Made by a program: the position numbers and the translations under genes. The notes under the pieces are model-generated. The model was not told the origin of the DNA and made no database searches. It saw nothing but the letters and a program-made list of their open reading frames with translations. From IMG/VR virus record IMGVR_UViG_651324052_000001, positions 96,603 through 160,602 of that record: a DNA stretch of 64,000 bases; one strand, given 5' to 3'. Positions 4,775 to 36,817 of the stretch are shown here, piece after piece. The DNA is from a virus. Taxonomy: Duplodnaviria > Heunggongvirae > Uroviricota > Caudoviricetes. Within the stretch, counting starts at the first letter, position 1, and each line of letters begins with the position of its first letter.

Positions 4775-6214
4775 ATGGCAAAGAAAATTAGAAAGAAAAC
4801 ACTGTCTTTGGAGTCGTATTTAGAAAAAATCGTAGATGAGGATATTAGCGATAACCAAGATGTTCAAAGAATGTTTTGCTGGGAGAATGTGATGGTGAAT
4901 GAACTCGTCAAAACTGTGTTGACAGATGATTATATTCCTCCAATTATCTTGGGCGAAGAAGACTTAGAAGAAGATGTTGTTCAACAGTATATTGTTGACG
5001 GTATGCAAAGAAGCTCCGCTTTGATCAAATTTAGATATGGCAACTATAAAATCACGCCATCTTTGGAAGAACCATTTATTCAATATCAAAGAAAAATGAA
5101 AGATGAAAATAACAATATTTGCAAAGATGAAAACGGCAAAGTTGTTTGGGAGTCAATTGAATATGATTTAAGAAGAAAAACATATGAGATGTTACCACCT
5201 GAATTAAAGAAAATGTTTGATGATTACCAAATTGATATTACGATTCATCAGCATTGCACGATGCCACAAATTAGTCGCTTAGTAAGAAGATATAACAATC
5301 ATAGGGGGATGAATCAATCTCAGAAGGCATTTACTTATATTGATTTATATGCACGGAAAATTAGGACTATTTCTGAAAATAAATTTTTCAAAAACTGTAT
5401 GAACTGCTCTGGTAGCGAGCGATCTAAAGGAACATACGAGCGTTTAGTATGCGAATCTGTAATGACAACGTTTTTCTTTGATAACTGGAAAAAAGCTGCA
5501 AAAGACATGAGTAAATTTTTAAACGAAAAAGCAACAGAAGAACATTTTGAAGCAATTGACCAGTATTTAAGTAGGATTGAAAATATTTGTAAAGATAATT
5601 TTACGGATGTGTTTGTTCCTAAAAATGTAGCGGTTTGGGTTTCTGTATTTAATAGGTTTACGGAATATGGATTAGATGATAGTAATTTTTTAGAGTTTAT
5701 TAAGGAGTTTAAAAAGGTATTACATTCAAAAAAGATAAATAACATTTCTTTTGATGAATTAAATGAGCATCGAAACACTAAAGACAAGGGAACGTTAAAA
5801 GAAAAAATAGACATATTAGTTTCTCTTATGGATGAATTTTTACATAATACAAATGAAAAAATATTTGATGTGATGGACGAGTATGATCCAAAACAAACTA
5901 TCATTGATTTTATCAAAGAGAATGTAAAAGAAGACGTTATCGAAGATGATGTTGAGTTTTATAAGTCACTGCTAGAAGATTGGTCTGTGGAAGTAGATAA
6001 TTCATCAAAACTTCTGGACGAAGGTAACATGAATTCATTACTTGCTGCAATTGCATATAGCGTTGAAAATGAACTCGATGAAGAAGTTCCTGCATGGATG
6101 GTAAGCTTCTTTGATAGAAATTCTACATATATTAAGAATCAAAAAGAGAATTATACATATATGATTAATGACCTTAATAAATTTATCAGAAATAAATACC
6201 AACTGGCAAGTTAG
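4775..6214 (+). CDS. DUF262 (ParB-like / GmrSD N-terminal-like) domain protein
   Basis: DVQRMFCWEN...YIPPIIL...YIVDGMQRSSAL matches the DUF262 QR-x-W...DGQQR signature. Confidence 0.65.
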   Translation: MAKKIRKKTLSLESYLEKIVDEDISDNQDVQRMFCWENVMVNELVKTVLTDDYIPPIILGEEDLEEDVVQQYIVDGMQRSSALIKFRYGNYKITPSLEEPFIQYQRKMKDENNNICKDENGKVVWESIEYDLRRKTYEMLPPELKKMFDDYQIDITIHQHCTMPQISRLVRRYNNHRGMNQSQKAFTYIDLYARKIRTISENKFFKNCMNCSGSERSKGTYERLVCESVMTTFFFDNWKKAAKDMSKFLNEKATEEHFEAIDQYLSRIENICKDNFTDVFVPKNVAVWVSVFNRFTEYGLDDSNFLEFIKEFKKVLHSKKINNISFDELNEHRNTKDKGTLKEKIDILVSLMDEFLHNTNEKIFDVMDEYDPKQTIIDFIKENVKEDVIEDDVEFYKSLLEDWSVEVDNSSKLLDEGNMNSLLAAIAYSVENELDEEVPAWMVSFFDRNSTYIKNQKENYTYMINDLNKFIRNKYQLAS

Positions 6215-8387: not shown

Positions 8388-9575
8388 GTGGATTGTGGAG
8401 AATATTATAAAGGAATTACAAAGCGACATAATGAATTTTATTTTGATAAGGAAGATTATGAATTAGTATCTAAACATTATTGGCTGTTAGATAGTTCCAA
8501 AAATGTTATAACAAAAATTGATGGAAAGAATATTTCAATGCATAAACTTTTGTTTGGGAATGGCGCTTATAAACATATTGATAATAACAATTCAAATAAC
8601 AGAAGAGAAAATATTGCTCCAGTTAAAGGGTTCAAAAATTCCGGGAAGACATATCTATGTGGATATATTGCTGTTTACATGCCTGAACACAAAAGGGCGT
8701 TCAAGGATAATGGGAGTGTATATGAACATATTCTAGTAGCAGAAAGAATATTAGGAAGAGAACTCAAAGATGGTGAATGCGTTCATCATATAGATGGAGA
8801 TAGAACAAATAATTCAGAAGATAATTTAATGGTGTTTTCCACAAATAACGATCATATTGCTTGTCATGGTGGCTGTGAGATAATAAAACAAGAAGATGGA
8901 ACTTATAAGTCAAAGCAAAAAAGGTTTAGATATTTTTATAACAATAGAACAAAAGAGGATATAGATAATAATATTGAAGATGTGGGAAGTATCACCATAA
9001 TTCCAAGCGGGTACGATATGTGTCCTATCTGTAAGAAAAGATTAAAAAGTTATAAATCAAAAATGTGTATGAAATGCAGAAATGAAGAAATGAGAAAGAA
9101 TATCCCTTCTAAAGAGGAATTAGAAAAGTATATATATCAGGAAAAAGAATATTACAGACTTATGTGTGGAGTATATAGCAAAGCTGATGACAAAGGTGCA
9201 ATGTTTGATGCAAGATGTTTCAATATTCCAAAAGAAGAAGTAACAAATAATATTTATTGGAGACAACTTGATGCAACGAGAAATTCTATTCAAATGGTAG
9301 GACAAACTAATTTTTCACATAAAGAATTACAGAATAAATCGTGCAATCAAATTCAAGACATGTTATTTACACAAAAAGGAATTAACTGGAATGATATTTC
9401 TACATATTTAAAAAGAGGAAGTTGCTGCATTAGAGAGAATTATATTTTTGAAAATTCAAATCCAAATAAAGAGACGTGTGTAGAACGAAGTCGTTGGATA
9501 ATCGACAAAGAAATACCTATTTTTAAGGGAGAGAACAGAGAATATATTGATAGGTTGGTATATGTAGGAGAATAA
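8388..9575 (+). CDS. HNH homing endonuclease (free-standing)
   Basis: HNH_3-like core EHILVAERILGREL...CVHHIDGDRTNNSEDNLMV; GTG start. Confidence 0.7.
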   Translation: MDCGEYYKGITKRHNEFYFDKEDYELVSKHYWLLDSSKNVITKIDGKNISMHKLLFGNGAYKHIDNNNSNNRRENIAPVKGFKNSGKTYLCGYIAVYMPEHKRAFKDNGSVYEHILVAERILGRELKDGECVHHIDGDRTNNSEDNLMVFSTNNDHIACHGGCEIIKQEDGTYKSKQKRFRYFYNNRTKEDIDNNIEDVGSITIIPSGYDMCPICKKRLKSYKSKMCMKCRNEEMRKNIPSKEELEKYIYQEKEYYRLMCGVYSKADDKGAMFDARCFNIPKEEVTNNIYWRQLDATRNSIQMVGQTNFSHKELQNKSCNQIQDMLFTQKGINWNDISTYLKRGSCCIRENYIFENSNPNKETCVERSRWIIDKEIPIFKGENREYIDRLVYVGE

Positions 9576-11405: not shown

Positions 11406-13463
11406 ATGGAATTTAAAGAATTTAGAAGTATGATTTCTGATCGTTTTAATGAAATGACGAAAAATGTTGACAGATTATTTGAAGTTGGCATTGATAAAGA
11501 TGAAATGTGGAATGTATATCTTGATAGTTTCCCTGACGGAACAAATGAGATTTACAGAAAAAGAAGAAAATATGACTGTAGTTGTTGCAGACAATTTATT
11601 AAACAAATTGGCAATGTTGTAACAATTAAAGGCAATAAATTAGAAACAATTTGGGATTTGGATATTCATGATGACAAATTTGAACCGGTTGCAAAAGCCA
11701 TGTCTGATTTTGTAAGAAGACACTGTGTAACAGACGTGTATGTAAGCAAATTTAAAAAGATTGGAACAGGATATAATTTCGAACAGTATGAAGACGGAAC
11801 AATGAAAAAGTGGGAACATTTCCAAATTATTTTAGAGGATAAATTTGTAGACAAAACCGCTCGTTCAATTGGAGATATTAAGGGTGTATTTAGAGACACA
11901 AAAAATGTATTTAAAAGATCACTTGATGAAATTTCTATGGATGCATTAGATACAGTGCTTGAACTTATCAACACAAATACTTTATACAAAGGGGAAGAAT
12001 GGAAGAACATTCTGAATGAGTTTAAAAGGTATAAGAAAGAATATGAAAAATTAAATTCTGATAATGACCGTGATTTATATGCATGGGAGAATTCTGTAAA
12101 AGCGGGTGTTGCAATTGGAAGAATTAGAAATCACAGTATTGGAACACTTCTTGTAAATGTAAGCAATGACATGAATCTTGATACGGCTGTAAAAAAATAT
12201 GAACAAATTGTAGCACCGGCAAATTATAAAAGACCTAAAGCAATTTTCACGAAAAAGATGTTGGAAGATGCAAAGAGGACAATTTCTGAATTAGGATATA
12301 TGGATTCTCTCAATAGAAGATTTGCAACTTTGGATGATATTACGGTGAATAATATTTTGTTTTCAAACAAAGATGCAGCGAAACGAATTTCAGATTCATC
12401 TGATATATTTGGAGAATTAGAAAAACAAGTTATGGTTAATCCAAGAAAATTTTCAAGAGTAGAAGAAATTTCTGCAAATGATTTCATTAATAATGTATTA
12501 CCGACAGCGAAAGAAGTAGAAGTTTTAGTGGAGAATAAACATTCGAATAATTTTGTTTCTCTAATTGCTCCTTGTAACAAAGAATCTAAATCTATGTTTA
12601 AATGGAATAACGGATTGAGTTGGGCTTATTCAGGGAATATTACAGATTCAGATATGAAGCAGAATGTAAAAGCTGCAGGCGGAAATGTGGAGGGTGTTCT
12701 TAGATTCTCTATCCAATGGAATGAAGATGGAAGAGATAACTGTGACTTGGATGCACACTGCATTGAACCAAATGGAAATAAAATTTACTTTAATAATTGT
12801 AGAAAACCATCTTTTTCATCCATGACTGGACAGCTTGACGTAGATATTATTAATCCAAATGGAAAGGTTGCCGTGGAAAATATTACATGGTCAGATAAAT
12901 CAAAAATGCAACCTGGTGTTTACAAATTTTTTGTTAATCAGTTTTCAGGAAGTGTACGAAATGGATTTAGAGCAGAAATCGAATTTAATGGAGAGATTCA
13001 TTCTTTTGATTATAATAATTCGATGAGAGTTGGACAAGATGTTTATGTCGCAGAAGTAACGTTGGATGATAATGGTGGATTTACAATTAAAGAAAAAATT
13101 TCCGGAAACTCTAAAATCTCAAGTAAAACAGTCTGGGGAGTTTCAACAAATGAGTTTACGCCGGTATCGGTAATTTGTTATAGTCCAAATTATTTTGACG
13201 AACAGGAGGGTATTGGTCATAGACATTTGTTCTTTATGCTGAACGGATGTAAAAATGATGAAGAACCAAATGGATACTATAATGAATTCTTAAAGAGTGA
13301 ATTAGAAAAGCATAAACGAGTATTTGAAGCTCTTGGATCAAAATGCCATGTAGAAGATTCTGATGATCAACTTTCTGGAATTGGTTTTAGTATGACGAAA
13401 AGAGCAGAACTGGTTGTAAAAGTAAAAGGTGCAACAGAGAGAATTTTGAAAATTAAGTTTTAA
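11406..13463 (+). CDS. large hypothetical protein with a TerD-like segment
   Basis: 685 aa; segment LRFSIQW...DLDAHC...KIYFNN...GQLDVDII...AVENITW...VYKFFV resembles the TerD beta-sandwich signature. Confidence 0.5.
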   Translation: MEFKEFRSMISDRFNEMTKNVDRLFEVGIDKDEMWNVYLDSFPDGTNEIYRKRRKYDCSCCRQFIKQIGNVVTIKGNKLETIWDLDIHDDKFEPVAKAMSDFVRRHCVTDVYVSKFKKIGTGYNFEQYEDGTMKKWEHFQIILEDKFVDKTARSIGDIKGVFRDTKNVFKRSLDEISMDALDTVLELINTNTLYKGEEWKNILNEFKRYKKEYEKLNSDNDRDLYAWENSVKAGVAIGRIRNHSIGTLLVNVSNDMNLDTAVKKYEQIVAPANYKRPKAIFTKKMLEDAKRTISELGYMDSLNRRFATLDDITVNNILFSNKDAAKRISDSSDIFGELEKQVMVNPRKFSRVEEISANDFINNVLPTAKEVEVLVENKHSNNFVSLIAPCNKESKSMFKWNNGLSWAYSGNITDSDMKQNVKAAGGNVEGVLRFSIQWNEDGRDNCDLDAHCIEPNGNKIYFNNCRKPSFSSMTGQLDVDIINPNGKVAVENITWSDKSKMQPGVYKFFVNQFSGSVRNGFRAEIEFNGEIHSFDYNNSMRVGQDVYVAEVTLDDNGGFTIKEKISGNSKISSKTVWGVSTNEFTPVSVICYSPNYFDEQEGIGHRHLFFMLNGCKNDEEPNGYYNEFLKSELEKHKRVFEALGSKCHVEDSDDQLSGIGFSMTKRAELVVKVKGATERILKIKF

Positions 13464-22731: not shown

Positions 22732-23742
22732 GTGAACTTAAAATTGAAAAATTATATTCCCCAAAAAGCAAGTACGATTGAAGAATTAATCGAAGCATGT
22801 CCTAAGAATCAAACGATACTAGATAACCTGATTAGGACATGGGCAATTATAAACAGTCCCAAATATCAAAATATTTTATGCAGTATTTCAGGCGGATCAG
22901 ATAGCGATATTATGTTAGATATTGTTTGGAGATGCGACAAAGACGATAAAGTAGATTATGTATGGTTTGATACTGGGCTTGAATATCAAGCAACAAAAAA
23001 TCATTTAAAATATTTAGAAGAGAAATATAATATAAAGTTTATTCGTAAGAAAGCGATTAAGCCCATTCCTACAAGTTGTAATGAGTATGGACAACCTTTT
23101 ATCTCGAAAAATGTAAGTGAATTTATGTCAAGATTACAGAAGCATGGATTTCAATGGGAGGACAAAGATTTTGATTACCTGATGAAAAAATATCCAAAAT
23201 GTAAATCTGCTTTGTCATGGTGGTGTAATGAAAATGGAGATAAATCTTCGTTTAATATATCAAGAAATAGATATTTAAAGGAGTTTATAATTGCAAATCC
23301 TCCCCAATTTAAAATATCAAATAAGTGTTGTACTTATTCAAAGAAAAAAATCTTTCATGGCATGATTAAAGAGAATGAATATGAACTTAATATTTTCGGA
23401 GTTAGGAAATCAGAAGGTGGGGCTAGATCGGCGGCTTACAAGAGCTGTTTTGATGATACAGATGGCGATTACGATAATTACAGACCTATTTTCTGGTACA
23501 AAGATCAAGACAAAATTGATTATGAAAATGCATATGGAATTACACATAGCAAATGTTATACAGAATATGGTTTGAAAAGAACTGGATGCGTAGGCTGCCC
23601 ATTTGGAAGAGATTTTGAATTTGAACTAAATGTAGTAAATAGCTATGAGCCAAAATTACATAAGGCTGTTTGTAATATATTTAAAGATTCTTATGAGTAT
23701 ACAAGAAAATACAAGGAGTTTGTAAAAAATATGAAAGGTTAA
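22732..23742 (+). CDS. PP-loop ATP pyrophosphatase superfamily protein (PAPS-reductase / TtcA / TilS-like)
   Basis: SISGGSDSDIMLDIV PP-loop; C-terminal GCVGCPFG; likely start TTG 22744 after AAGGTGA. Confidence 0.6.
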   Translation: MNLKLKNYIPQKASTIEELIEACPKNQTILDNLIRTWAIINSPKYQNILCSISGGSDSDIMLDIVWRCDKDDKVDYVWFDTGLEYQATKNHLKYLEEKYNIKFIRKKAIKPIPTSCNEYGQPFISKNVSEFMSRLQKHGFQWEDKDFDYLMKKYPKCKSALSWWCNENGDKSSFNISRNRYLKEFIIANPPQFKISNKCCTYSKKKIFHGMIKENEYELNIFGVRKSEGGARSAAYKSCFDDTDGDYDNYRPIFWYKDQDKIDYENAYGITHSKCYTEYGLKRTGCVGCPFGRDFEFELNVVNSYEPKLHKAVCNIFKDSYEYTRKYKEFVKNMKG

Positions 23743-23942
23743 TGGTCATGACAATTGCAAGCAACATAAAGAGATATATGGAAGAGAAAAATATAACAGT
23801 TATGGACATTGTATTAAACACATCTTTTTCAAGAAATGATATTGAAAGAATATTATCAGGAGAATTAATGATTTGTCCATGTGGATTAAAAGAAATTGCA
23901 ACAGTTCTTGGTGTAAGTAAAAGAGATTTAATGAAAGGTTAA
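23742..23942 (+). CDS. XRE/Cro-like HTH regulator
   Basis: 66 aa; ATGA overlap with the upstream gene. Confidence 0.5.
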   Translation: MVMTIASNIKRYMEEKNITVMDIVLNTSFSRNDIERILSGELMICPCGLKEIATVLGVSKRDLMKG

Positions 23943-23958
23943 TTTTATTTAATAATAA

Positions 23959-24930
23959 TTGGAGGAGAATATGGAAATTATCAAAACGCATACAGGGAAA
24001 ATATATGTAGATAGAGAAAAACAGCTAGAATTTTTAACTGTCGGGGACTATGGAAAAGAGAATAATATTAAGGCAGATTTTCTTGGATTGCATAAAGAAA
24101 TTAACGGTGTAGTAAATACTGAAGTTGACTTAACGAAAAAATGGGTTGCAACAATTAGTACACAAAAAGGATGTCCAATGAAATGTAGGTTTTGTGATTG
24201 TCCTAAATATGGTTTTTATGGGAATGTTTCATTAGATGAATTATGTTATGAAATTGAAACTATTTTAGAACACGAAGATGTAAATATTACTGAAAGGTTT
24301 AATGTTCATTTCGCCAGAATGGGAGAACCAACATTTAATAATAATGTTCTTTATTTTACAGAGTATATGTTGCAGAGAATTGTAAAATCTTATATCGATG
24401 TAAAGACTATTCATCCTGTTATATCTACAATGTTACCAAAATCAAATAAAAACTTAAAAGAATTCATTTTGAAGTGGTGTAATATTAAAAACAATACTTA
24501 TAACGGAGACGCCGGATTACAGTTTAGCATTAATAGTACAGATAATGATCAAAGAAACGAACAATTTAATAATATGTCATTGGAACTAGAGGAAATTTCT
24601 AAAATTGCAAAAGAACTTCCGGCACCGAAAGGGAGAAAGTATACATTAAACTTCGCTGTTACAAAAGATACGATTATTGATGTAAAGAGACTTTCTGATT
24701 TATTTGATAAGGAAAAGTTCATTGTAAAAATAACACCAATTCACGAAACAAATTCTGCGATTGATAATGGATTTGATGTCACAACTTCCTATACTGATTA
24801 TGATGTTTATAGAGAATTTGAAAGACCGTTAGTTAAAGCAGGGTGGGATGTTATTGTGTTTGTTCCAAGCAAGGAAGAAGATAGCGACCGTATTACATGT
24901 GGTAATGCATTAATATCTTCATCTTTATAA
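23959..24930 (+). CDS. RlmN/Cfr-family radical SAM methyltransferase homologue lacking the N-terminal accessory domain
   Basis: STQKGCPMKCRFC (RlmN: SSQVGCALECKFC), ARMGEPTFNN (MGMGEPLLN), VISTMLP, FSINSTDNDQRNE (ISLHAPNDEIRDE), C-terminal RITCGNAL (AACGQL). Confidence 0.6.
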   Translation: MEENMEIIKTHTGKIYVDREKQLEFLTVGDYGKENNIKADFLGLHKEINGVVNTEVDLTKKWVATISTQKGCPMKCRFCDCPKYGFYGNVSLDELCYEIETILEHEDVNITERFNVHFARMGEPTFNNNVLYFTEYMLQRIVKSYIDVKTIHPVISTMLPKSNKNLKEFILKWCNIKNNTYNGDAGLQFSINSTDNDQRNEQFNNMSLELEEISKIAKELPAPKGRKYTLNFAVTKDTIIDVKRLSDLFDKEKFIVKITPIHETNSAIDNGFDVTTSYTDYDVYREFERPLVKAGWDVIVFVPSKEEDSDRITCGNALISSSL

Positions 24931-24965: not shown

Positions 24966-25481
24966 ATGACAGATTATCAGAGGCAGTTAGTAACTGACAA
25001 TCATAATTTGATCTATAGATTTTTACAGAAAGAAAAATTAAATATGGAAGATTGGTATGATTTGGCTGCAATTGGAATGTGTAAAGCAGCAAAAACATTT
25101 AATGAAGGAACGTCCAAATTTTCTACATATGCATTTAAATGTATGTTTAACGAAGTGTATAGCGAAAAAAGAAAAGAATTAAATAAGAGAACAATTCCAG
25201 AAGACAAGATTCTTTATTACAACACTGAGTATGAGGATGGATCTGGAAATAAAGTAGAATTTATTGAAAAAATACAATCGGATTACAACGTTGAGAGCGA
25301 CTGTATTCGTAAAGTTACTTTAAAAAATGCATTTAATAAAATGAAAGAAAAACATAAACCTATCATCTCATTATTTTTACAAGGATATAAACAAGTAGAA
25401 ATAATGAAAATTGCTGGATGTTCTCAGCCACAAGTTTCGAGAGTTATGAAAAGATTTGTAGATGAATATGTGAGATGTTGA
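24966..25481 (+). CDS. sigma-70-family RNA polymerase sigma factor
   Basis: Region 2 DLAAIGMCKAAKTFNEGTSKFSTYAFKCMFNEV; region 4 ISLFLQGYKQVEIMKIAGCSQPQVSRVMKR. Confidence 0.7.
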   Translation: MTDYQRQLVTDNHNLIYRFLQKEKLNMEDWYDLAAIGMCKAAKTFNEGTSKFSTYAFKCMFNEVYSEKRKELNKRTIPEDKILYYNTEYEDGSGNKVEFIEKIQSDYNVESDCIRKVTLKNAFNKMKEKHKPIISLFLQGYKQVEIMKIAGCSQPQVSRVMKRFVDEYVRC

Positions 25482-25501: not shown

Positions 25502-26806
25502 ATGTATTGTGGATATATTACAACACTTAAAGGATTAAGAAAACATAGTAATGCTGACCGTTTACAGTGTGTAGAGGTATTCGGACAGAATGTAATTGTG
25601 GATTTGAGTTATAAAGATGGGCAGAGGGTTGTATTTTTCCCGTCTGATGGACAGCTTTCTGAAGAGTATGCAAATGACAACAAACTTGTGAGAGTAAAGG
25701 ACGAAAACGGTAATAACGTTGGTGGTTATATGGATCCAAATAAGAGAAATGTAACTGCAATCAGATTAAGAGGTGAAAAATCTGAAGGGCTGATTTTGCC
25801 AATTGATACACTTTCGAAATATACTGATATTAATAAACTGAAAGATGGGGATCAAATTACAGTTCTTGGAGGAAGCGAGATTTGTAAAAAGTATATTCCA
25901 AGAGGGAATAAAAGAAGCAATATTAACTCTAATAAAAAGAAAGAGAAGTATAAAGAAAATATTTCCTATCCATTTTTTGAAGAACATAAAGATACTGCAC
26001 AGCTTGCATATAATTTAAATTCTTTTAAGCCTGGCGATACAGTGTATATTACACGTAAGCTTCATGGAACTTCTGCTCGTACTGCTAAGACATTAAAAAT
26101 TACAAAGAAAAATAGTAAGTTGAGAAAATTATTACATATGAAACAGAAACAGATAAAAGAAATTTCTGTTGTGTCTGGAAGTAGAAGAGTTGTAATTAAA
26201 GATTTGAATAGCACAGATGGATATTATTCTGATAATGCATTCAGAAAAAAATATCATGATTTGTTAAAAGACAAATTACCTGAAGGGTGTGAAGTGTTTT
26301 ACGAAATTGTAGGGTATGTAAATGAAACTACGCCGATTATGGGATCTGTATCAAATTCAAAGGTCAAAGATAAAGAGTTCACAAAGAAGTTTGGAAAAGA
26401 GACTACATTTTCTTACGGTTGTCAACCTGGAGAATCTGAGATGTATGTTTACCGTATGACTATGACGACAGGTGATGGAACAGTAATGGAAGTTCCTTGG
26501 GAAGTGGTTAAAATTTGGTGCGATAAACTTGGTGTGAAATATGTTCCAGAATTAGAAAAATTTATTTATACAACAAAAGAAGATCTAATGGAAAGAGTGA
26601 ATAAATATTTATCTGGTATGCCGGCAGACGAAATTGGAAGAACACATATTGCTGAAGGTGTGGTTGTACGTATTGACAATAGAGAATCATTCACAGCTTA
26701 TAAGGACAAAGTGTTTGAGTTTAAGGTAATTGAATCAATTATTAAAGATACTTCAGATGTTCCGGATATGGAAGAGGCTGAGGAGCTTATGGGGGAAGTA
26801 ATGTAA
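25502..26806 (+). CDS. ATP-dependent RNA ligase with N-terminal OB-like domain (Rnl5/DraRnl-like architecture)
   Basis: Motif I RKLHGTS (KxHGT), motif IV EGVVVRI, motif V KDK; about 180-aa N-terminal extension. Confidence 0.6.
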   Translation: MYCGYITTLKGLRKHSNADRLQCVEVFGQNVIVDLSYKDGQRVVFFPSDGQLSEEYANDNKLVRVKDENGNNVGGYMDPNKRNVTAIRLRGEKSEGLILPIDTLSKYTDINKLKDGDQITVLGGSEICKKYIPRGNKRSNINSNKKKEKYKENISYPFFEEHKDTAQLAYNLNSFKPGDTVYITRKLHGTSARTAKTLKITKKNSKLRKLLHMKQKQIKEISVVSGSRRVVIKDLNSTDGYYSDNAFRKKYHDLLKDKLPEGCEVFYEIVGYVNETTPIMGSVSNSKVKDKEFTKKFGKETTFSYGCQPGESEMYVYRMTMTTGDGTVMEVPWEVVKIWCDKLGVKYVPELEKFIYTTKEDLMERVNKYLSGMPADEIGRTHIAEGVVVRIDNRESFTAYKDKVFEFKVIESIIKDTSDVPDMEEAEELMGEVM

Positions 26807-27733
26807 ATGAAACCTAAATTATATATTATGTGTGGACTTTCCGGAAGTGGAAAGTCCAGCATTGCAAGAGATTTAGCCATTAAACATAATGCAGAGATTG
26901 TATCTTCAGATGCAATTAGAGAAGAATTGTTTGGATCATGCCAAAATCAATATGATAATGAAAAAGTGTTTAATATTTTTAATAAGAGAATAAAAGAATC
27001 ATTAAATGAGAATAAAAATGTAATTGCAGATGCAACGAATATCACGATAAAGTCACGACGTGCGATTGTTGAGTGCGTGAGAAAATTGGATATTGAGAAG
27101 ATTTGTTATATTGTACCTAAGAAATACAAAGATTGTGTTAAAGATAATAAGAATAGAGAACATACAGTACCAGAATATGTACTCGAAAAGCAGTTAAGAA
27201 GATTTCAAATTCCTTTTAAAGAAGAAGGATTTAGTGAAATGGTTATTCATGATATGGGATATACATATGCTGATAAAATCCTTCCAAATACAGTTATGGT
27301 ATCAATGACAGGATTTGATCAAAAAAATCCGCACCACAACATGTATTTAGAAGACCATTGTGACTTTACATATAACAAGTTTTCAGATTTGGCTGATCCT
27401 TATGATGCATATAAAAGCGGTTTTCTTCTTGGTGCAAAAATACATGATTTTGGTAAATTGTGTACACAAACGATTGATGAAAATGGGATTGCTCATTATT
27501 TTGGACATGAAAATGTCGGGGCGTATTGTGTTTTAACAACATTGCATAATCCATTTGAAGAATATAATACCGATGATTTTTTGTTAGATTGTTGTTTTTT
27601 AATTAATTATCACATGATACCTTTTAATTGGAACACGGAAAAAACTAAAAATAAATGGAAAAACATATTTGGCGAAGAAAAATATAACATGTTGTTAAGA
27701 TTTCATGAGTGTGATAAAGCGAGGTGTGAATAA
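26807..27733 (+). CDS. polynucleotide kinase (P-loop) fused to an HD-like phosphohydrolase domain
   Basis: Walker A GLSGSGKSS; C-terminal PHHNMYLEDHCD His/Asp cluster. Confidence 0.55.
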   Translation: MKPKLYIMCGLSGSGKSSIARDLAIKHNAEIVSSDAIREELFGSCQNQYDNEKVFNIFNKRIKESLNENKNVIADATNITIKSRRAIVECVRKLDIEKICYIVPKKYKDCVKDNKNREHTVPEYVLEKQLRRFQIPFKEEGFSEMVIHDMGYTYADKILPNTVMVSMTGFDQKNPHHNMYLEDHCDFTYNKFSDLADPYDAYKSGFLLGAKIHDFGKLCTQTIDENGIAHYFGHENVGAYCVLTTLHNPFEEYNTDDFLLDCCFLINYHMIPFNWNTEKTKNKWKNIFGEEKYNMLLRFHECDKARCE

Positions 27734-31443: not shown

Positions 31444-31611
31444 ATGTGGGTAATATTTTTGCTTGCAGCAATGGGATTTGCGATTGCAACTTTGTTGGTG
31501 GTTTATATCGGTAATAAAGTTGTGAATGCAATGAAAAGAGATGATGAAAAATTAAATAAGGACATTAGTAAAGAAAAAGCAAATGAAAAGGAGAAAGAAA
31601 AACATGAGTAA
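31444..31611 (+). CDS. small single-TM membrane protein
   Basis: ATG 31444 after AGGAGAG; TM WVIFLLAAMGFAIATLLVVYIG; the track start 31402 lies inside the upstream gene. Confidence 0.4.
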   Translation: MWVIFLLAAMGFAIATLLVVYIGNKVVNAMKRDDEKLNKDISKEKANEKEKEKHE

Positions 31612-32449
31612 AAAAGGATTTGTAGTAGGAGTTGTTGTAGTCGCAGCGGTTGTAGGAGGTTTCTTCACAGTTAAGTCAGTAGAGAGAATTGGAACCGGTA
31701 AATTAGGAGTTCAATATTCTGTTAATGGTGTTAAAGATGAAACTTTATCAGAAGGGTGGCATTTTATTAATCCATTCTTAAAGATCAAGGAATTTTCCAT
31801 TGGTAATGAACAACTTGTGCTTGAAAAGGGTAAAGAAGATAATTCAATTAAGGTTGCTACATCAGATGATGCCAGTATATCAGCAAGTTTTCAGATGTCA
31901 TATCGGTATAAACCGGAAGAAGTCGTTACTACATATAAGAAATTTCGTGGAATGGATGGAGAAGATATCGTTGATCAGAGAGTAAAATCTGTGCTTAAAT
32001 CGAAAATCTCGGAGGTTACGGCGGGGTATAGCATGATGGCTGTGTACTCTGGTGATAGATCTGAAATCAATAATAAGCTTACAGAATATTTAAATGAAGA
32101 ATTTGGAAAGGAATACGGAATTGAAGTTTTGGATGCTTCTATTATTGATGTACATCCTGATGACAAATTAAAAGAGTCCATTGATGCAAGAGTAAAAGCT
32201 CTTCAAGAAAAACAACAAGCAGAGGCGGAGCAGGAGAAAGTAAAAGTACAGAAAGAGACTGAAAGAATCCAGGCTGAAGCTGATGCACAAATTGAAGTTA
32301 CAAAAGCTAAAGCAGAGGCAGAAGCGAATAGATTAAAATCTGAATCTATTACAGACGAGTTAATTCGTATGAAAGAAGCCGAAGCAAGATTACAGCACGG
32401 ATGGGTGACTACTCAGGGTGCAAATGCGGTTGTGAAAGACGGTGAATAA
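31604..32449 (+). CDS. SPFH/band-7 (prohibitin/HflK-like) domain protein with N-terminal TM and C-terminal coiled coil
   Basis: N-terminal TM helix; coiled-coil C-terminus; likely start ATG 31604 after AGGAGAAAG. Confidence 0.65.
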   Translation: MSKKGFVVGVVVVAAVVGGFFTVKSVERIGTGKLGVQYSVNGVKDETLSEGWHFINPFLKIKEFSIGNEQLVLEKGKEDNSIKVATSDDASISASFQMSYRYKPEEVVTTYKKFRGMDGEDIVDQRVKSVLKSKISEVTAGYSMMAVYSGDRSEINNKLTEYLNEEFGKEYGIEVLDASIIDVHPDDKLKESIDARVKALQEKQQAEAEQEKVKVQKETERIQAEADAQIEVTKAKAEAEANRLKSESITDELIRMKEAEARLQHGWVTTQGANAVVKDGE

Positions 32450-35414: not shown

Positions 35415-35780
35415 ATGAGTGTAGAATTTTATGCATGTGACAATTGTGGGGAAACATTTCTTGATTGTGGAGAATATGTATCATGTGAAACTTGTTGTAC
35501 AAGATGGTGTTGTGATGAATGCGCTGAAGAAGATGGTTATGTGAGAGAACATTGTAAATTACATCCAGATTTAGATGATTATGACCTTATGTATGAATAT
35601 AGAAAAAAGCATTGTAAATACGACAGTTGTACAGACTGCGAGCATTATGTGCCGGATAGCTGTAATTATTGTAGAAACGAAGATTACCCTGATAATGTGT
35701 TACTGGATTATTGCATGGAACTGCTCGGCGTCACAAGAGATCAGTTAGTAGAGAAATATAATAATAGGGAAATAGTATGA
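35415..35780 (+). CDS. Cys-rich hypothetical protein
   Basis: CDNCGETFLDCGEYVSCETCCTRWCCDEC. Confidence 0.45.
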   Translation: MSVEFYACDNCGETFLDCGEYVSCETCCTRWCCDECAEEDGYVREHCKLHPDLDDYDLMYEYRKKHCKYDSCTDCEHYVPDSCNYCRNEDYPDNVLLDYCMELLGVTRDQLVEKYNNREIV

Positions 35781-36817
35781 ATCTGAAACAAATTAAAGAA
35801 ACAATAAATAAACAAGAATATGATTTCTTAAAAGAAAATAAGCACTTAGGGAATAATGTTATTTTACTTACGCTTGGTGGCAGTTATGCATATGGAATGA
35901 ATATCAATACAAAAGAATATGTTAGTGATATTGACGTAAGAGGGGTTGCATTAAACAGTAAAGAAGAAATTCTTCTTGGAAAAGACTTTGAACAAGTCGT
36001 GGAAACTGATACGGATACGACAGTTTACTCATTCAATAAAATTTTACAATTATTAAAATCAAATAATCCTAACACTATTGAAATTTTAGGATGTAAGCCC
36101 GAACATTATTTATATCTATCTGGTGTTAGTAGAGAATTATTAAATAACAGAAAAATGTTCTTATCTAAGATTTGTATTAATTCTTTTGCAGGATATGCTT
36201 CAAGCCAATTACGACGTATGGAGAACAAAGCTGCTAGATTAGTTGGACAGGCACAAAATGAAGAATACATTTTAAAATCAATCAATAATGCAAGCTATGA
36301 TTTTAAAAATCGTTATTTTCCAATGAATGATGGATCACTCAGTCTTTATACAGATAAAGCAGTGCAGGAAGGTTATGACACTGAAATTTTTATGGATATT
36401 GTTTTAAAACATTATCCATTAAGAGATTGGACTGGTATGTGGAATGAGATGAAAGCTATTGTAAGTAGCTATAAGAAAATTGGTAGACGAAATGAAAAGG
36501 CAATGAACAAGGATAAACTTGGAAAACATATGGCTCATTTAATCAGGTTGTACATGATGTGCATTGATATTCTTGAAAAAGAAGAAATTATTACTTATCG
36601 AGAAAACGAACATGATTTACTTATGAGTATACGAAACGGAGAATATCTTGATGGCAATAAACAGCCAACTTCGGAATTCTATGATTTGTTAAATGAGTAT
36701 GAAAAGAGATTTGATTACGCTAAGGAGAATACTTCATTACCGAGTGTGCCGGACTACAAGAAAATTGAAGAGTTCAAAATGTATGTAAACGAAAGAATTG
36801 TGAAAGGAGATATTTAA
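35777..36817 (+). CDS. Pol-beta-superfamily nucleotidyltransferase
   Basis: GGSYAYG-x-SDIDV (GS...DxD) minimal NTase signature; roughly 250-aa helical C-terminal part. Confidence 0.55.
   Translation: MNLKQIKETINKQEYDFLKENKHLGNNVILLTLGGSYAYGMNINTKEYVSDIDVRGVALNSKEEILLGKDFEQVVETDTDTTVYSFNKILQLLKSNNPNTIEILGCKPEHYLYLSGVSRELLNNRKMFLSKICINSFAGYASSQLRRMENKAARLVGQAQNEEYILKSINNASYDFKNRYFPMNDGSLSLYTDKAVQEGYDTEIFMDIVLKHYPLRDWTGMWNEMKAIVSSYKKIGRRNEKAMNKDKLGKHMAHLIRLYMMCIDILEKEEIITYRENEHDLLMSIRNGEYLDGNKQPTSEFYDLLNEYEKRFDYAKENTSLPSVPDYKKIEEFKMYVNERIVKGDI

Follow-up and report, generated by a model that had tools for sequence, protein, structure and literature searches.

A one-cysteine family of RlmN/Cfr-like radical S-adenosylmethionine proteins in phages and anaerobes

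In a 64-kb stretch of caudoviral DNA (positions 96,603 to 160,602 of IMG/VR record IMGVR_UViG_651324052_000001; the window, below, is this whole stretch) we found that the gene at 23971..24930 encodes a one-cysteine RlmN/Cfr-like enzyme of a large uncharacterised family. As judged from its sequence, the protein fails one defining feature of the class A radical S-adenosylmethionine (SAM) methylases, the resolving cysteine, and keeps the rest. Our best explanation, held tentatively and somewhat short of even confidence, is a stand-alone, horizontally mobile phage auxiliary enzyme of an RlmN/Cfr sister family, which would release its adduct catalytically by a non-cysteine route and for which tRNA is the leading substrate. 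The parts of the gene on which the argument draws are as follows.

23961..23967, + strand: Shine-Dalgarno-like GGAGGAG before the start codon, read from the sequence
23971..24930, + strand: single-cysteine RlmN/Cfr-like radical SAM protein, 319 aa, identical to EGC75593.1
24151..24153, + strand: codon of Thr61, aligned with the resolving Cys118 of RlmN and never Cys in 289 homologues
24172..24195, + strand: stretch directly 5' of the Asp76 codon
24196..24198, + strand: codon of the family-specific Asp76
24316..24330, + strand: R116-M-G-E-P, equivalent to the G177-M-G-E-P SAM-binding strand of RlmN, with the Arg adjoining the position of RlmN M176 (for the role of M176, PMC9692996)
24877..24903, + strand: C-terminal loop E303-x6-C310-G311, with Cys310 aligned with the methyl-carrier cysteines RlmN Cys355 and Cfr Cys338

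The relationship to RlmN and Cfr emerges from profile comparisons. With hhalign, residues 51-315 fell on residues 108-360 of Escherichia coli RlmN (probability 98.9%, E = 3e-17, about 20% identity in the core), placing Thr61 opposite Cys118 and Cys310 opposite Cys355, and a family profile built from 35 diverse homologues matched three solved RlmN/Cfr structures (E = 8e-20 to 6e-18) in the same register, over a span that opens with the strand preceding the cluster motif and includes the CGQ loop at the C-terminus. The fold is closer to RlmN/Cfr than to other radical SAM enzymes. Single-sequence searches reached the cluster region only (phmmer against the PDB, E of about 1e-3); the NCBIfam RlmN model TIGR00048 gave 37.4 bits against a cut-off of 290, in a match limited to residues 59-142, the Cfr models gave 24-27 bits against cut-offs of 468-550 (TIGR04432 and NF000424, 25-27 bits against 530-550), and PF04055 gave 29.4 bits, just below its cut-off of 29.5. 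An RlmN/Cfr-type alignment from the cluster motif to the C-terminal loop had already been proposed by a model that saw only the letters and open reading frames (ORFs) of the stretch (the sequence-only reading), and these comparisons bear it out. The start that it took, the TTG at 23959, has to be replaced by the ATG at 23971, which lies behind the GGAGGAG and agrees with the 319-aa EGC75593.1. Its statement that the N-terminal domain is missing holds for the helical domain of RlmN, since the profile alignments open at RlmN residues ~99-108 and query residues ~33-51, and needs the correction that the protein has an N-terminus of its own (about 55 residues, beta-rich in a structure model), together with an insertion of about 25 residues ahead of strand 1.

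In the words of a review (PMC9692996), class A methylases 'use two conserved cysteine residues'. The one corresponding to C118 of RlmN and C105 of Cfr is indispensable for crosslink resolution, current evidence favouring C118 as a general base, and the RlmN C118A mutant is trapped on its own RNA (PMC9692996). Our protein has the CX3CX2C [4Fe-4S] motif, with Cys68, Cys72 and Cys75 invariant or nearly so, and only four cysteines are conserved across 42 full-length representatives, namely the three cluster ligands and Cys310. The C-terminal CG(Q/N) cysteine was kept in 120 of 120 close, 39 of 49 diverse and 77 of 78 further viral homologues. A cysteine seven residues before the first cluster cysteine was found in none of 120 close homologues, 91 diverse representatives or 78 further viral homologues, which have T, I, N, M, V and other residues there; the absence that the sequence-only reading had noted thus stood up to the profile check.

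This state is widespread. Along its whole length the protein fits the profile of PHROG 24834, a family of unknown function (E = 2e-106, 357 bits), residues 8-321 falling on positions 7-324 of 336, and relatives in a large protein collection fall into 6069 clusters at 90% identity (E <= 1e-3), or 697 at the 50% level. Two scans of viral contigs confirmed 295 and 438 relatives, and a related subfamily spans no fewer than 600 species of bacteria and archaea. Four residues are near-invariant and specific to the family: Asp76, directly after the third cluster cysteine; Arg116; Lys253; and Glu303, seven residues before Cys310. All four are absent from RlmN and from a clade of two-cysteine phage proteins that we discuss at the end. 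In these alignments the missing cysteine is a family-wide and strongly conserved state, and not a lesion or the mark of a degenerate copy. We found no description of the family in NCBIfam, Pfam, PHROGs, PADLOC or the literature searched, subscription journals lying outside that search.

A catalytic cycle for such an enzyme can be proposed on the RlmN pattern. By homology, Cys310 would first be methylated by one SAM; a second SAM would then be cleaved at the [4Fe-4S] cluster, its 5'-deoxyadenosyl radical activating the S-methyl group, and the resulting methylene radical would attack a purine-type ring at an sp2 carbon. The enzyme-substrate thioether adduct would finally be resolved catalytically by a non-cysteine base, for which Asp76 and Glu303 are the candidates, while Arg116 and Lys253 may position the substrate. 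Resolution without C118 is conceivable because the published mechanism has C118 act chiefly as a general base (PMC9692996), a role that another residue could fill. Stated more broadly, the protein may be a natural one-cysteine methylase of class A type whose adduct is freed by a new non-cysteine route (an Asp/Glu base, assistance by the substrate or a partner protein); gut phages would spread it so as to C-methylate a purine of tRNA, or a purine-like metabolite, during infection, with the same chemistry in a three-gene operon of hundreds of anaerobes described below; this too we regard as possible without being probable.

Clues to turnover come from cellular relatives. The nearest of these (44-46% identity) are fused to a QueT-like S-component of an energy-coupling factor (ECF) transporter, and the S-component and the radical SAM protein, with or without a nucleosidase, form single polypeptides (P0126, P0130, P0131). 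The C-terminal fusion domain scores above the NCBIfam equivalog cut-offs for 5'-methylthioadenosine/S-adenosylhomocysteine (MTA/SAH) nucleosidase (224 bits versus 169). The resemblance to QueT is weak, at 37-40 bits against a cut-off of 33.7, and the sequence upstream of the fusion genes has no pre-queuosine-1 (preQ1) riboswitch. The monocistronic genes, of which MCQ2753177.1 from a Bacilli metagenome-assembled genome is an example, are these.

Locus L007, 8001..10445: QueT-like S-component and single-cysteine radical SAM protein, with or without MTA/SAH nucleosidase
Locus L008, 3423..5885: the same type of fusion
Locus L003, 641..2401: the same type of fusion

Other fusions join the radical SAM protein to an isochorismatase-like domain, or to a thioredoxin reductase (TrxR)-like flavoprotein that lacks the CxxC disulfide (P0256). 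The same partners recur as neighbours. Among 80 diverse anaerobe genomes (Anaerolineales, Deltaproteobacteria, Thermoplasmata, Heimdallarchaeota and others) a TrxR-like flavoprotein, an NAD(P)H-flavin reductase, was encoded upstream of the radical SAM gene on the same strand in 73, and an isochorismatase-like cysteine hydrolase in 57. A three-gene operon made up of this hydrolase, the flavoprotein without CxxC and a single-cysteine RlmN-like radical SAM protein is shared by 600 or more uncultured anaerobic species, both bacterial and archaeal (L089-L168, L004 and L005), and its members are also seen as two-domain fusions (P0209, P0219, P0256). The hydrolase is a generic cysteine hydrolase and not specifically a nicotinamidase. 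PADLOC gave no match for the radical SAM protein, for P0185 or for the hydrolase, and only a weak generic flavin adenine dinucleotide match for the reductase; a known defence or anti-defence system was accordingly discarded as a candidate, nothing of the kind having appeared in the literature searched either.

A nucleosidase that clears by-products and a dedicated electron donor are useful only with repeated turnover, which points to a multi-turnover enzyme, and this argues most strongly against the suicide RNA-crosslinker that the sequence-only reading had offered as one of two possible functions. Such a factor would be irreversibly joined to host rRNA or tRNA through an unresolved Cys-CH2-adenine adduct, as the trapping of RlmN C118A (PMC9692996) and the consistent lack of cysteine at the C118-equivalent position could be taken to suggest. 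However, the one-cysteine state is conserved in thousands of proteins, including those of chromosomal operons in 600 or more species of bacteria and archaea; the family-specific acidic and basic residues could substitute for the lost cysteine; and several phages have the gene at the head of their own tRNA array. We consider the suicide function very improbable.

The same partners bear on whether the protein is a methylase at all. A single conserved cysteine outside the cluster is a hallmark of spore photoproduct lyase and of radical SAM epimerase-type enzymes, and the family might likewise let the 5'-deoxyadenosyl radical act directly on its substrate, with Cys310 as hydrogen-atom donor or thiyl radical in a reaction of isomerase, lyase or reductase type. 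Loss of the second cysteine does remove a defining class A feature, and a dedicated reductase partner would suit such chemistry, but the methyl-carrier apparatus of RlmN is kept in full, with the S-S/T-Q-x-G-C and M-G-E-P strands and the flexible CG(Q/N) loop at the C-terminus, and the nucleosidase fusion fits an enzyme that yields both SAH and 5'-deoxyadenosine, as RlmN does. A non-methylase therefore seems improbable to us.

As to substrate, the sequence-only reading had named rRNA or tRNA adenosines, and of these a tRNA target is plausible. RlmN itself methylates tRNA A37 (PMC5130265), and a candidate substrate for the phage proteins would be an anticodon-loop adenine, as in the 2-methyladenosine (m2A37) made by RlmN; the benefit might be that phage or host tRNAs are tuned or protected alongside the phage RNA-repair genes. 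In a lineage of ~185-kb phages the radical SAM gene ends 68-78 nt before a tRNA-Arg(TCT) gene that heads an array of 9-11 tRNA genes (21 of 24 loci). A tRNA gene lies 185 nt after the homologue in L010 and within about 1.5 kb of it in L014 and L047, and in L006 the homologue is adjoined by PTH2 and Rnl1. The RNA-repair-type genes of the window and the place of a sister two-cysteine clade inside a tRNA array, both described below, likewise favour tRNA. In the ~185-kb phages (L065-L088), which are probably stop-codon-recoded jumbo phages, suppressor tRNAs with anticodons CTA and TTA also lie 2-7 kb upstream of the gene.

Several observations weigh against a tRNA-directed methylase. Among the 80 more divergent viral loci of a second set the nearest tRNA gene was at least 1.2 kb away, with one within 8 kb in only nine, and the window has no tRNA genes; the adjacency to tRNA is on these grounds lineage-restricted. 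The RNA-binding N-terminal domain of RlmN and Cfr is missing, and the protein is acidic (isoelectric point 5.4). The fusion of the nearest cellular relatives to a QueT-like transporter component, and the hydrolase found as operon neighbour and fusion partner, suggest a small-molecule substrate. Within the proposed mechanism, Arg116, Asp76 or Glu303 would be placed at the vacated C118 site by sequence position alone, and methylation of Cys310 by homology.

The same chemistry may thus act on a small molecule of purine or deazapurine type, be it a base, a nucleoside or a nucleotide, making the phage gene an auxiliary metabolic gene. The transporter fusions with or without nucleosidase, the hydrolase and flavin reductase of the anaerobes and the lack of an RNA-binding domain all favour this, as do a CTP_transf_like gene that follows the homologue in L171 and the occurrence of a nicotinamide phosphoribosyltransferase (Nampt/NadV) gene within 3 kb of a homologue, in both gene orders, at six loci of three subgroups.

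Locus L006, 19..651: Nampt/NadV near a radical SAM homologue
Locus L022, 794..2299: Nampt/NadV near a radical SAM homologue
Locus L177, 3125..4804: Nampt/NadV near a radical SAM homologue
Three loci of L179-L258: Nampt/NadV near a radical SAM homologue

On the other side, no one metabolite suggests itself, the similarity to QueT is weak and comes without the riboswitch, the hydrolase is not specifically a nicotinamidase, the phage genes have neither transporter nor hydrolase partner, and the tRNA-array and RNA-repair contexts exist. We rate the small-molecule substrate as rather unlikely, though well within consideration, and for the phage members tentatively place tRNA slightly ahead of a small purine-like molecule.

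Two more specific proposals were set aside. A link to NAD salvage was rejected, given the nature of the hydrolase and that most loci have no NAD genes, and 2-methyladenine (the cobamide lower ligand) found no support as product in the literature search or the gene contexts. The Nampt gene of L006 is accompanied by genes for NUDIX, NAD kinase and phosphoribosyl pyrophosphate (PRPP) synthase. In 27 loci of one phage lineage (L205-L239) an ORF of ~134 aa lies about 1 kb downstream of the radical SAM gene; its product may resemble nucleoside 2-deoxyribosyltransferase-like (DUF4406-type) proteins.

The genes that surround the radical SAM gene in the window are the following.

22732..23742, + strand: PP-loop ATP pyrophosphatase-like protein of the 3'-phosphoadenosine 5'-phosphosulfate (PAPS) reductase family, 336 aa (PF01507, 49 bits, cut-off 22.5; phrog_424, 6e-31)
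23742..23942, + strand: small helix-turn-helix (HTH) protein, 66 aa (phrog_2967, transcriptional regulator, 4.6e-8; Pfam HTH_19/HTH_26 below cut-off)
24966..25481, + strand: sigma-70-family (SigF/G-like) factor, a neighbour only
25502..26806, + strand: ATP-dependent RNA ligase with N-terminal OB domain (PF09414, 42.6 bits; phrog_968, 7.5e-64)
26807..27733, + strand: polynucleotide-kinase-like P-loop kinase with C-terminal HD-like region (AAA_33, 82.9 bits; bacterial Pnkp kinase domain, 54.9 bits)

The PP-loop protein has SGGSDS at 22888..22905 (residue 53) and CVGC at residue 286, with weak similarity to the PP-loop of BrxP/SspD, and the kinase has a weak match to the C-terminal region of CCA-adding enzymes. 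The sequence-only reading had mentioned these neighbours; the sigma factor and RNA-repair genes downstream (24966, 25502 and 26807) were confirmed, and the PP-loop and HTH genes upstream are real, yet the module that it implied is not. We examined 8 kb to either side of the homologue in the 80 closest viral loci (69-80% identity) and in the second set of 80. A PAPS reductase homologue lay within this distance at one of the 80 closest loci and one of the 80 more divergent, HTH and sigma genes at none of the 80 closest (the more divergent set agreeing), a kinase homologue at one of the closest, and an RNA ligase homologue at seven of them, 7.5-8.7 kb downstream of the radical SAM gene. De novo clustering of neighbouring ORFs at the 80 closest loci found no partner common beyond single phage lineages. 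In Bacteroides phage Versailles, the only GenBank phage with a full-length homologue (52.7% identity), the gene stands alone among replication and recombination genes, with ParB nearby and no PAPS reductase. These counts rule out that the PAPS reductase, HTH or sigma genes form a conserved module with the radical SAM gene, and establish that the PP-loop and HTH genes, though real, are incidental and that the radical SAM gene acts independently of them. Because identity among the radical SAM proteins is kept (47-80% across the 160 viral loci) despite unrelated surroundings, the gene appears to be mobile and self-sufficient, an auxiliary gene whose target is available in any host.

DNA might be thought the target, with adenine C-methylation of phage DNA serving restriction evasion. 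The gene lies in an early/replication region, with a DNA methylase and an SNF2 helicase near it in the window, ParB and replication genes near it in Versailles, and a ParB-HNH gene near the homologue of L169. Against this, no DNA-metabolism partners are conserved, the chromosomal operon form and the transporter fusions of bacteria are a misfit, and the literature searched offered no precedent; a DNA modifier is to our minds the least probable of the alternatives.

The window (30% G+C, with credible genes all on the + strand) is part of a large phage or prophage of an anaerobe, a gut bacterium. Its replication set comprises a Sak4-like protein, a DnaB-like helicase, a primase, exonucleases and a DNA polymerase of 1106 aa, and it also encodes the anaerobic ribonucleotide reductase NrdD. 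Lachnospiraceae bacterium 6_1_37FAA has the radical SAM protein at 100% identity (EGC75593.1), encoded on a 1.87-Mb contig, so that the element is integrated there; megablast found no phage near-identical to the window in GenBank. No + strand terminator was found between 22000 and 28300, so the genes around the radical SAM gene are probably co-transcribed, as in most phage early regions; promoter-like sites in that region were no more frequent than in shuffles.

Four RNA-repair-type genes, an unusually full set, are present in the window: the ligase and kinase above, an RlaP-family nucleotidyltransferase ('RNA repair pathway') at 35777..36817 (+ strand; PF10127, 60 bits; phrog_388), and a Thg1-like gene at 8388..9575 (+ strand). 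The last encodes an HNH endonuclease segment (residues ~80-160) and a half resembling Thg1 C-terminal/tRNA-His guanylyltransferase (residues 255-392; phrog_4717, 1.6e-37), and resembles an enzyme for tRNA 5'-end repair that a homing endonuclease has invaded or to which one has been fused. An SPFH/Band_7 (prohibitin/flotillin-like) gene at 31583..32449 (+ strand) lies 7.6 kb 3' of the radical SAM gene; similar genes occur within 8 kb of the homologue in about 30 of the 80 close viral loci (L042-L054 and L065-L088) and 4 kb downstream of it in Stenotrophomonas phage BUCTxx99 (L174, 8994..9839). A 685-aa protein at 11406..13463 (+ strand) matches phrog_1735 (unknown function; E = 7e-265) and has no Pfam domain, and a 479-aa protein at 4775..6214 (+ strand) scores 28 bits with GmrSD_N (DUF262-type), below the cut-off of 33, with no PADLOC match.

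Mutation of C118 in RlmN or C105 in Cfr is the textbook way to trap these enzymes on RNA, and here a huge natural family dispenses with that second cysteine, which implies either another route of resolution or a different reaction on the same scaffold. The gene moves among gut phage genomes that are otherwise unrelated and yet keeps 70-80% identity, the mark of an auxiliary function under strong selection; its annotation at present is only 'hypothetical' or 'radical SAM'. If tRNA is the target, a modification enzyme would join phage tRNA genes and the RNA-repair toolkit in countering anticodon-targeting defences. For the metabolism of anaerobes, the hydrolase-reductase-radical SAM operon and the transporter fusions offer unexplored leads.

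Compared with RlmN, the C2-methyltransferase of 23S rRNA A2503 and tRNA A37, the protein has Thr61 at the C118 site, lacks the N-terminal helical domain, and adds the insertion before strand 1 and the family-specific Asp76, Arg116, Lys253 and Glu303. Compared with Cfr, the C8-methyltransferase of 23S rRNA A2503, it lacks both a C105 equivalent and the N-terminal domain; with the NCBIfam RlmN/Cfr models far below their cut-offs, we found no support for a Cfr-like antibiotic-resistance function. The queuine lyase QueL of Clostridioides difficile (queK-qrtT-queL) is likewise a radical SAM enzyme of gut Firmicutes, and together with its QueT/QrtT-type transporter and nucleosidase it presents the three functional types joined in the QueT-radical SAM-nucleosidase fusions. 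An identification of our protein with QueL was rejected, as similarity to solved QueL (6p78) was not found.

Closest in architecture is a clade of truncated proteins of T5-like and other large phages (Stenotrophomonas phages BUCTxx99 and ANB28, Vibrio phage 166E36-1 and Salmonella phage Arash) that are likewise about 310 aa long without the N-terminal domain, share an LQFS-x-x-STDE-x-R signature with our family and score 135-140 bits with the family hidden Markov model, versus 68 for E. coli RlmN. Unlike our family, they keep the cysteine at -7 (TVMCVSTQxGC), and hence both class A cysteines, and have S/G, G and T in place of Arg116, Asp76 and Lys253. These genes are annotated as hypothetical or 'RlmN', and the literature searched offered no experimental characterisation of the clade.

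Loci L174 and L175, 4881..5840: two-cysteine truncated RlmN-like gene
Locus L177, 4896..5822: two-cysteine truncated RlmN-like gene
Locus L176, 4878..5807: two-cysteine truncated RlmN-like gene

Their niches nonetheless resemble those of the one-cysteine family, being a tRNA array or a place next to Nampt: in T5-like Stenotrophomonas phages the two-cysteine gene lies inside the tRNA array (one copy being mis-annotated as 'prohibitin family protein'), and in Vibrio phage 166E36-1 it directly follows the genes for Nampt and PRPP synthase.

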